From contig OZ024746.1 of NCBI GenBank assembly GCA_964016885.1, forward strand, positions 86,862,001 to 86,926,000: a stretch of DNA of 64,000 nt, given 5' to 3'. The notes beneath the pieces are model-generated. The model was not told the origin of the DNA, did not search any database, and saw only the letters and a program-made list of their open reading frames with translations. The position numbers and the translations under genes were made by a program. Position 1 is the first letter of the stretch. The number at the start of each line of letters is the position of its first letter. This stretch comes from Eledone cirrhosa. Its lineage: Eukaryota. This document shows, piece by piece, positions 17,996-20,005 of this stretch.

Positions 17996-18414
17996 ACATA
18001 TATATAATATAATGTAATATAATATGATACAATATATATATATATATATATATATATATATATATATATATATATATATATATATATATATATATATATA
18101 TATATATATATATATATATATATATATATATCATTCTCACCGTTAGTACGGCTGTTACTTAAATATAAGTATGTACACGTACATACTTATATGTATACAG
18201 ACGTACAGTAGTATGTATATATATATATATATATATATATATATATATATATATATATATATATATACATACATGCACACATATATATATGTTAGTATGG
18301 ATTCGGGATGTTTGTTTACAAACACTCCGAGCATTATAATACATGTTCGGTGAATCCATACGTACATATATATATATATATGCATGTATATATATATATA
18401 TATATATATATATA

Positions 18415-18612
18415 TAGGAACCAGTAAAACCCCGACAGCTGAGCTCAAGCCGTTTCGACGGCTAATTCTGGACGTCCAGAATTAGCCGTCGAAACGGCTT
18501 GAGCTCAGCTGTCGGGGTCTTACTGGTTCCTATTATCCACTCTACTACCTCAAGTATTGAGTACTTTGGTGCGTTATGGTCCACCTGCTTCCTTACCACA
18601 TTTCCTTCGTTA
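18415..18612. mobile_element. Family-B fold-back copy (palindrome 18415-18532 plus tail)
   Basis: Palindrome centred on ctggac|gtccag; carries the GAAAC..GTC half of the family-B HHR in both orientations; (TA)n on both sides. Confidence 0.85.
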
Positions 18613-18933
18613 TATATATCTATCTATCTATCTATCTATCTATCTATCTATCTATTTATCTATCTATATATATATATATATATATATATATATATATATA
18701 TATATATATATATATACATACTACTCTACGTCTGTATACATATATGTATGTACGTATACATACTTATATTTAAGTAACAGCCGTACTAAGAGTGAGAAAT
18801 GAAATTTCGTTTCATTTTTTCCGTTTATCGTTTTCGGTTCCCCGGCCGATTAAGCAAATTAGGCTGCTCAGTCGTTAATATGCATGAGGAAAGTATATAC
18901 TTTCAGATGTTCAACCATCTAGCAGGAAGGTAT

Positions 18934-18976
18934 ACGTTGCTAACGATAGCTAATAAGCTTGAAACTATTACAGCGT
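18934..18976 (+). ncRNA. Hammerhead ribozyme copy with core mutations (CTAACGA, G5A), probably inactive
   Basis: acgttg CTAACGA t agct aata agct t GAAAC ta TTA cagcgt. Confidence 0.7.
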
Positions 18977-19372
18977 TCCTTTATCAGTGTTGAACAAATG
19001 ACCAACGGTGGTTGCTAGACCCTGTACGGCTTAATTCGGGATGTTTGTTTACAAGCACACCGAGCATTATAATAAATGTTCGGTGAATCCATACGTACAT
19101 ATATATATGTGTGCATGTATGTATATATATATATATATATATACATACTACTGTACGTCTGTATACATATATGTATGTACGTATACATACTTATATTTAA
19201 GTAACAGCCGTACTAAGAGTGAGAAGTGAAATTGCGTTTCATTTTTTCCGTTTATCGTTTTCGGTTCCCCGGCCGATTAACTCACTTGATATGCAAATTA
19301 GGCTGCTCAGCCGTTAATATGCATAAGGAAAGTATATACTTTCAGACATTCAACCATCTGGCAGGAAGGTAT

Positions 19373-19415
19373 ACGTTGCTGACGATAGCTAATAAGCTTG
19401 AAACTAGTACAGCGT
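19373..19415 (+). ncRNA. Canonical minimal hammerhead ribozyme
   Basis: Stem I acgttg/cagcgt, CTGACGA, stem II t-agct-aata-agct-t, GAAAC-ta-GTA (palindromic actagt). Confidence 0.9.
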
Positions 19416-20005
19416 TCTTTTGTCAGTGTTGAACAAATGAGCAACGATGGTTGATAGACACTGTACGGCTTAATTCGGGATGTTTGTTTACAAACACACC
19501 GAGCATTATAATAAATGTTCGGTGAATCCATACGTACATATATATATGTGTGTGCATGTATGTATATATATATATATACATACGTACGTCTGTATACATA
19601 TATGTATGTACGTATACATACTTATATATATATATATATATATATGTATATGCTTATACTCATATATAAAAATGCATATGTTATATATATATAAATATAT
19701 ATATATATATATATATATATATATATATATATATATATATATATATATATATATATATATATATATATATATATATATATATATATATATACATACATAC
19801 TTACATATATATGCGTGTATGTCTATGCTTGTGTATGTGTTTGTTGGTGTGTATGGAAAGATGATGTCAGTTTCGTTTTCATAAGTGCGGTATCACGCGT
19901 TCTAGAATCATAATTACCTATTGTACACCGCTTTTAAACTCCTCTAAAAACAATAATGAGAGTATCGTTTTGAATTGAATAAACCAAATGGCGTTGATTC
20001 TTATG

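Follow-up and report, generated by a model that had tools for sequence, protein, structure and literature searches.

A hammerhead-bearing tandem repeat of Eledone cirrhosa, probably copied into TA tracts by a Penelope-like element

Two hammerhead units in a TA tract

The window, a 64,000-nt stretch of Eledone cirrhosa DNA (contig OZ024746.1, positions 86,862,001 to 86,926,000), contains a repeat of period 439 (2.2 copies with 91% matches at 18674-19627, TRF), and the locus holds two complete units and a part-unit (Table 1). A sequence-only reading of the window had described tandem 439-nt units with one hammerhead each and cuts 439 nt apart. This description holds: TRF gives a period of 439, and the last bases of the cut triplets are 18970 and 19409. 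The same reading was right that the repeat has no open reading frame (ORF): ATG-started frames in a dimer of the unit reach 60 aa at most, and no ORF combining reverse transcriptase (RT) and GIY-YIG domains lies within the repeat. A 37-codon ATG frame in the unit bears, by eye, a faint likeness to a Hydra N-terminus.

Table 1. Features of the repeat locus, in window coordinates
Feature	Positions	Strand	Remarks
Left-flank (TA)n target tract	18032..18131	.	sequence
Inverted 5'-truncated arm	18134..18290	-	unit positions 323-403 at 18214-18134, then internal TA tract
5'-truncated start of forward arm	18301..18416	+	unit position 218 onward, without ribozyme
Nested 'family B' insertion, 3' end of young Hydra-clade Penelope-like element	18414..18616	.	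98% match to end of tandem Penelope-like element with intact 784-aa ORF
Unit A, E1 to next E1	18770..19196	+
Tail segment (E1 to E2), internal copies	18770..18828 and 19197-19255	+
Hammerhead 1, predicted inactive	18934..18976	+	G5A and G16.2>T; cut would follow 18970; core starts 18940
Cut-to-cut 439-nt monomer (predicted circle)	18971..19409	+	36% GC
Unit B, E1 to E1	19197..19627	+	forward arm stops tailless at E1 (19627)
Hammerhead 2, family consensus	19373..19415	+	predicted cut after 19409; core starts 19379
Right-flank (TA)n target tract	19628..19790	.	sequence

Hammerhead 2 combines a 6-bp helix I, CUGACGA, a 4-bp helix II resting on a U.U mismatch, and GAAAC-UA-GUA, with a helix III of 2 bp inside the palindrome ACUAGU. 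Such geometry is that of a canonical metazoan type I hammerhead, active as a dimer (accessible text of PMC4209133), and the same U.U is described in an axolotl retrozyme (PMC7229834, in part). This ribozyme had been called perfect; it is indeed the family consensus, but it has U.U rather than G-C at the base of helix II, and its 2-bp helix III does not appear in the fold of the monomer. The hammerhead descriptor matched 0 of 20,000 dinucleotide-shuffled versions of the unit at 19190-19628, and Rfam returned no hammerhead family among 150 listed of 184 matches at E<=1, giving AT-repeat miRNA noise instead. Hammerhead 1 carries the G5A change already recognised (at 18942) and a second lesion that had been missed, G16.2>T at 18968, which destroys the helix III palindrome; among the sampled loci, G5A was found in 2 and G16.2>T in 1. 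Because of these two lesions, the window locus is predicted to be unable to release a monomer. Two consecutive intact hammerheads, the activity rule of Li 2026, are lacking at this locus and present at others, among them L017, L102 and L111.

In the circular fold of a sibling unit, pair probabilities were 0.46-0.97 in helix I and 0.9-1.0 in helix II, and helix III did not form. Pairing of two consensus helix III strands was predicted at -6.8 kcal/mol, against -2.3 kcal/mol for a consensus strand with the mutant strand of the first unit. With a helix III loop of 2 nt, cleavage is predicted to need a dimer, and the hammerheads are predicted to cut in pairs because helix III is a self-complementary 6-mer. 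A minimum free energy (MFE) fold of the circular monomer, proposed earlier as a check, gave -140.6 kcal/mol for the cut-to-cut monomer, a highly self-paired prediction (70% paired; z -8.0 against shuffles with the TA hairpin, -4.4 without the TA part). Strong predicted folding of this kind suits circular and linear models alike.

The inverted fragment on the left had been taken for a unit start, and this proved mistaken: ~18134-18290 is the 3' end of a second, outward-pointing arm, whose outward end carries 26 nt of an incomplete tail. The forward arm comprises ~2.4 units, counting the part-unit at 18301-18416. The locus has a long arm running to E1 (19627) and a short inverted arm with part of the tail, matching the two-end pattern of the family described below. 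The 'family B' element, flanked by TA, consists of a tailless inverted arm (18414-18473) and a forward arm (18474-18616) with an 83-nt tail. It was correctly placed in a TA tract but not at a unit junction, since relative to the real ends of the element this tract lies inside the unit. Unit A has a private 12-bp deletion that takes out a ATGCAAAT octamer, which is present in both subfamilies and stands at 19291-19298 of the window. Newt satellite 2 has an snRNA-type promoter. We consider the window locus to be one decayed insertion, probably defective and dead, in line with the earlier suspicion that it may be partly dead: its first hammerhead has two lesions.

A dispersed family with two fixed ends

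The repeat is a dispersed multi-copy family, as had been suspected, and a duplication unique to this locus is excluded: the intact ribozyme 48-mer occurs exactly 3,843 times in the genome (control, 0), and a genome search yielded 1,879 candidates (40 were scored, at 96-100% identity). For a sister subfamily the count of candidates was 2,535. Between the two ribozymes, 6 of 43 positions have changed: the two partners of one helix I pair, the two bases of the helix II mismatch, position 7 and position 17; the 13 core bases are all unchanged. Sparing of the core between subfamilies is suggestive only, as the changes would miss it by chance with probability 0.10. Genomic copies depart from the consensus by 2.1% in the core, 2.8% in the ribozyme and 2.4% in the rest, so there is no extra conservation of the ribozyme. 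The core was intact in 216 of 261 sampled units, a sample biased toward intact ones.

Units are 420-439 nt long with 36% GC, and a typical sampled locus has 1-3 of them; arrays of 10 and ~50 were also found. Sibling arrays with intact ribozymes exist; the first reading had suggested that siblings may be active. Array size in the family reaches ~50-100 units. The satellite-like arrays are one of ~50 copies at G000:C1:51772395-51793780 (L094-L096) and one of perhaps 100 at about 96.995-97.039 Mb of G000:C1 (L238-L239), the latter count resting on two 10-kb stretches only. These large arrays show higher-order periods and many decayed ribozymes, the periods pointing to later expansion of the 50-unit array by recombination. 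An (A-B)x5 array (L093) was considered as the product of a dimeric circle and rejected: its last B unit is without the B-specific ribozyme change, and the array fits later tandem duplication. Samples were first-listed matches on contig C1 or top-scoring matches, with a few duplicated loci included, and inspection covered ~200 loci out of several thousand. Pattern scans gave 0 matches in metagenome and viral contigs; contigs of four runs of unknown kind covered the unit and are uninformative on expression.

Where do insertions begin and end? We found two fixed ends, E2 (CCGTTT, then the TA repeat; 2,476 exact occurrences) and E1 (CATACTT, then the TA repeat; 1,475 exact). These sites are separated by 56-60 nt and lie 220-285 nt downstream of the cut. 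Insertions occupy (TA)n tracts, are truncated on their 5' side and terminate at E1 or E2 rather than at the ribozyme cut; both flanks are (TA)n, a sequence that masks any target-site duplication. Internal unit-to-unit junctions occur 2,413 times exactly. Of 100 E2 ends listed on contig C1, the first 90 had forward arms of 39-2,338 nt (median 415, TA tracts shortened), which crossed at least one cut site in 55 cases and two in 11. Their 5' ends were scattered, with 4 of 90 within 6 nt of a cut against 2.7 expected (p=0.36).

An inverted arm was present at 47 of these 90 ends, stopping at E1 in 40 of the 47 and at E2 in none. When two-arm loci were classified (n=71), 54 paired E1 with E2, 2 paired E2 with E2, none paired E1 with E1, and 15 had an unclassified end. 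The part of this set that had been found without end selection gave E1-E2 in 21 of 30 and E1-E1 in none, and among E1-selected loci (n=30) E2 stood opposite in 15 of 15 two-arm loci, one of them complex. Arm tracing can stop early at indels, and one locus reached the edge of the traced stretch.

Judged from the genomic copies, two fixed ends with inverted arms are the 'tail' signature of Penelope-like elements (PLEs). The available part of PMC8557442 lists among PLE features partial tandem copies, an inverted copy truncated at its 5' side and a tail on one end, and gives (TA)n targeting as a feature of the Hydra clade. In the available part of PMC11167929, two internal RT start sites delimit the tail, which is termed unique to PLEs and goes with cutting and extension of both target strands. 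Borrowing of a PLE enzyme is likely because the insertions show these two fixed ends and inverted arms typical of PLEs. We regard mobilisation of the unit by PLEs as very likely, and the full explanation, an ORF-less hammerhead tandem repeat copied in trans into (TA)n by a PLE RT-endonuclease, as probable.

A circular or a linear template

How would such copying proceed? The array would be transcribed as a multimer folding into a branched, self-paired RNA, in which hammerheads are predicted to cut as pairs and free ~430-nt monomers that may be ligated into circles. A PLE protein would nick both strands of the TA tract, and reverse transcription would start at E1 and E2, one site per strand; the ends are those observed, the enzyme is presumed. 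Copying passes the cut sites and halts at scattered points, the two products joining head to head as seen at the insertions, and at a few loci arrays appear to have expanded later into satellites. Whether the template RNA is circular we judge to be an evenly balanced question. More tentative is the scheme in which a ribozyme-made circle is rolled in trans by a dimer of Hydra-clade PLE protein, which would prime two target strands from two fixed sites of one template. If true, the genome would preserve in each insertion a trace of target-primed reverse transcription by rolling circle, and both the circle and its helper could be reconstituted from this one genome.

Alternatively, the same PLE helper may copy an uncut linear multimer, with the hammerhead an inherited passenger and no circle formed, a possibility that we rate at somewhat less than even. 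Uncut linear RNA is a serious rival to the circle because hammerhead cleavage was found dispensable for insertion in PMC11167929: according to its accessible text, hammerhead mutants inserted normally in vitro and unprocessed RNA was the dominant substrate. Self-cleavage was seen in only 1 of 9 Xenopus dimers in the accessible part of 10.64898/2026.07.22.740005. A linear multimer is also favoured by the missing helix III of the folded monomer and by mixed-subfamily arrays, and uncut RNA predicts read-through of the cut sites just as a circle does.

The variants shared by neighbouring units bear on both templates. At 24 subfamily-diagnostic sites, discordance was 155/1,494 within one arm and 152/1,201 between opposite arms, against 46% between random loci. 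Within loci, copies had 2.8 and 2.5 rare variants per kb in common; the figure was 0.10 for copies from different loci and 0.12 when these loci matched in haplotype, a ~25-fold difference. Any common rare variant was present in only 21 of the 60 tandem loci and 21 of the 55 loci with two arms. Both arms and all units appear to come mostly from one template lineage. Variants seem to have been copied into every unit, as rolling of a monomer would do, which fits one template recopied and is no proof of a circle. Against the linear multimer, subfamily and rare variants fill all units (discordance 10-13% vs 46%), so that a monomer-to-multimer step is needed somewhere. Moreover, same-rank copies on opposite arms were not clearly closer than different-rank copies (3.6% vs 3.9-4.1%; 35 loci, p=0.26, low power), a comparison that does not tell circle from linear multimer, and the subfamily changes in the ribozyme avoid the core. 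Loci mixed for an 8-bp deletion (4 of 46) or a 2-bp deletion (11 of 69) run against a strict single-monomer circle, which does not predict them. No locus of 82 had identical units (divergence 0.5-8.8%), and later gene conversion or duplication could also homogenise neighbours.

Candidate helper and related systems

Several Hydra-like and other PLE families coexist in the genome. A young Hydra-clade family is rich in long open frames (the longest of 819 aa among 150 scored matches) and has tandem copies with an intact 784-aa ORF. This ORF contains RLRWR, DKT, CxCx5C, CxxC and CxH, the Hydra-clade motifs given in the accessible text of PMC8557442, with RLRWR for RWK. A Pfam search gave no match for the 784-aa ORF, and the Atlas and a homolog search recovered relatives bearing PF26215/PF28514. 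The candidate shows, within the window locus itself, a two-end anatomy like that of the unit. The PLE to which 'family B' belongs is autonomous, of the Hydra clade, and a likely helper; for the clade of the helper taken by itself, Hydra is the somewhat favoured assignment. Four head-to-tail copies with intact 784-aa frames, of 3,531-nt period and tailless at E1 in (TA)n, lie at G000:C1:437198001-437218000 (L233-L234).

The unit showed no sequence homology to the PLE ends of the tested families. It had no blastn match in 30 Hydra RT loci, and its local alignments to four PLE non-coding regions scored within the shuffle range. No ORF-bearing parent was found with the PLE ends tested and in ~200 loci inspected. 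Because homology and parent are both lacking, we infer the helper rather than identify it, a likely assignment made from the common target and anatomy. Several candidate parents were rejected. The GIY-YIG ORFs beside L007 and L015 come from PLE insertions that are unrelated; the sense Hydra ORF end beside L164 is a one-off nesting, the unit core block matching 1 of 30 family copies; and the common flank of L016 and L019 is a separate LINE-type RT ORF.

Could the units instead be solo pseudo-LTRs, the truncated 3' ends of an autonomous PLE? Their anatomy is like that of autonomous PLE insertions, the ~200 loci inspected are a part of several thousand, and in Xenopus 21 of 57 retrozyme families had homologous-class matches to PLE ends, 24 families matching 22 TEs of which 21 were PLEs (10.64898/2026.07.22.740005, accessible part). 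However, arms longer than one unit run on into another unit at the exact junctions counted above, and 41 one-arm loci with an upstream flank have no common adjoining body, one of them adjoining a sense Hydra ORF end; we consider this origin improbable. A satellite or foldback repeat made at the DNA level, by recombination, rolling-circle DNA or a MITE-like route and with a chance or fossil ribozyme, would suit the higher-order periods of the ~50- and ~100-unit arrays and the resemblance of inverted arms to terminal inverted repeats, but it is largely refuted and most improbable, because retrotransposition is marked by fixed 3' and scattered 5' ends, by unequal arms and by strictly paired E1 and E2, the hammerhead motif is beyond chance (0/20,000 shuffles) and recombination accounts for long arrays only.

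In every DNA-level feature tested the family appears to fit the non-LTR retrozyme class. The sequence-only reading had proposed a retrozyme family, and this stands insofar as the repeat is dispersed, tandem and without an ORF, each unit having a single canonical type I hammerhead; the reading overlooked the two fixed Penelope-type ends and the PLE nature of 'family B'. Like the metazoan non-LTR retrozymes of coral, mussel (Mytilus) and axolotl described in the accessible text of PMC7229834, the unit forms tandem 150-450-bp low-GC repeats with no ORF, one canonical type I hammerhead each, thousands of copies and a self-paired predicted fold, and it shares the U.U at the helix II base with axolotl HHR_Amex2. 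Circles and cleavage were demonstrated for those retrozymes, whereas the unit is known from genomic DNA, with predicted folds; in turn, the unit differs from them, as far as that text describes them, in its mapped two fixed ends, inverted arms and (TA)n targeting, and in its helix III loop of 2 nt. Li, Clavereau, Pollet 2026 (10.64898/2026.07.22.740005) likewise present PLEs as source and helper, with dispersed monomers and rare long arrays. They argue from co-occurrence and from pLTR homology, in vertebrates, insects and one coral, with no mollusc in the accessible part, whereas we argue from insertion anatomy, and pLTR homology was not found with the tested families.

Hydra-clade PLEs (Craig et al. 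2021, PMC8557442, in part) share with the unit (TA)n targeting, partial tandems, an inverted 5'-truncated arm, a one-end tail and canonical hammerheads. The unit differs in having no ORF and in its tail of 56-60 nt, against 30-40 bp in that literature and ~83 nt in the Hydra-like families here; its ribozyme lies 220 nt upstream of E1, a distance that is ~17 nt for the young Hydra-clade family. Poseidon PAc of Anolis (Frangieh et al. 2024, PMC11167929, in part) resembles the unit in a tail between two internal RT starts, in cutting and extension of both strands and in AT-rich targets. In contrast, PAc is autonomous and showed no strand difference in start site in vitro, whereas the two arms of the unit nearly always use different sites.

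A link between PLEs and retrozymes has already been proposed (PMC7229834, PMC7761336 and 10.64898/2026.07.22.740005, as far as their accessible texts go). The mover of animal retrozymes and the circle as template are open questions: PMC7229834 puts PLEs forward as candidates, and the case made in the 2026 preprint rests on co-occurrence together with homology of repeats, both in their accessible parts. We found neither this family nor a retrozyme with tail anatomy described in the listed hammerhead, retrozyme, Penelope and octopus/cephalopod literature (supplements, Repbase and Dfam excluded). What the family adds is evidence for PLE mobilisation at the level of insertions, namely thousands of copies with the PLE tail and two-arm anatomy. 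That the arms pair E1 with E2 almost strictly also constrains PLE integration itself. A young intact candidate helper makes the question testable in an existing kind of in vitro assay. The surprise is limited, as the class is already known and the window copy is probably dead.

Other repeats share the window with the locus. A second Hydra-like PLE family has left a 3'-end insertion with two arms at 17143-17578; it has an 83-nt tail, a two-end anatomy like that of 'family B' and a hammerhead variant (GAAAU-GCGC-AUA) on both arms. More truncated ends of the young Hydra-clade family occur at 13039-13472, 14089-14170, 40878-41263, 51032-51198, 53250-53332 and 58848-59096; its hammerhead has a U3-A8-type core (UUGAGAA), a long helix III and a cut ~17 nt before E1. 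A decayed Hydra-like RT/EN fragment at 45468-46282 (-) is 37-46% identical to the young family, and two 533-nt inverted arms, 94% complementary and adjoining a TA tract at 15665-16895, are probably another two-arm PLE insertion. In an older Hydra-like family elsewhere in the genome (L034-L044), a hammerhead with a ~90-nt loop 2 lies 3' of a GIY-YIG ORF; its helix II base (CAG...CUA) equals that of the sister subfamily, and the unit's ribozyme may be distantly related to it. A ~100-200-nt short interspersed repeat that resembles octopus SINEs recurs at 17018-17120, 17591-18013, 20058-20183, 3433-3860 and 6226-6512, often as tandem pairs beside TA tracts. Finally, a 259-nt tandem repeat (2.4 copies, 95%) at 22798-23409 overlaps an Rfam tRNA match at 23206-23276 (+), and a second Rfam tRNA match lies at 62802-62872 (-).
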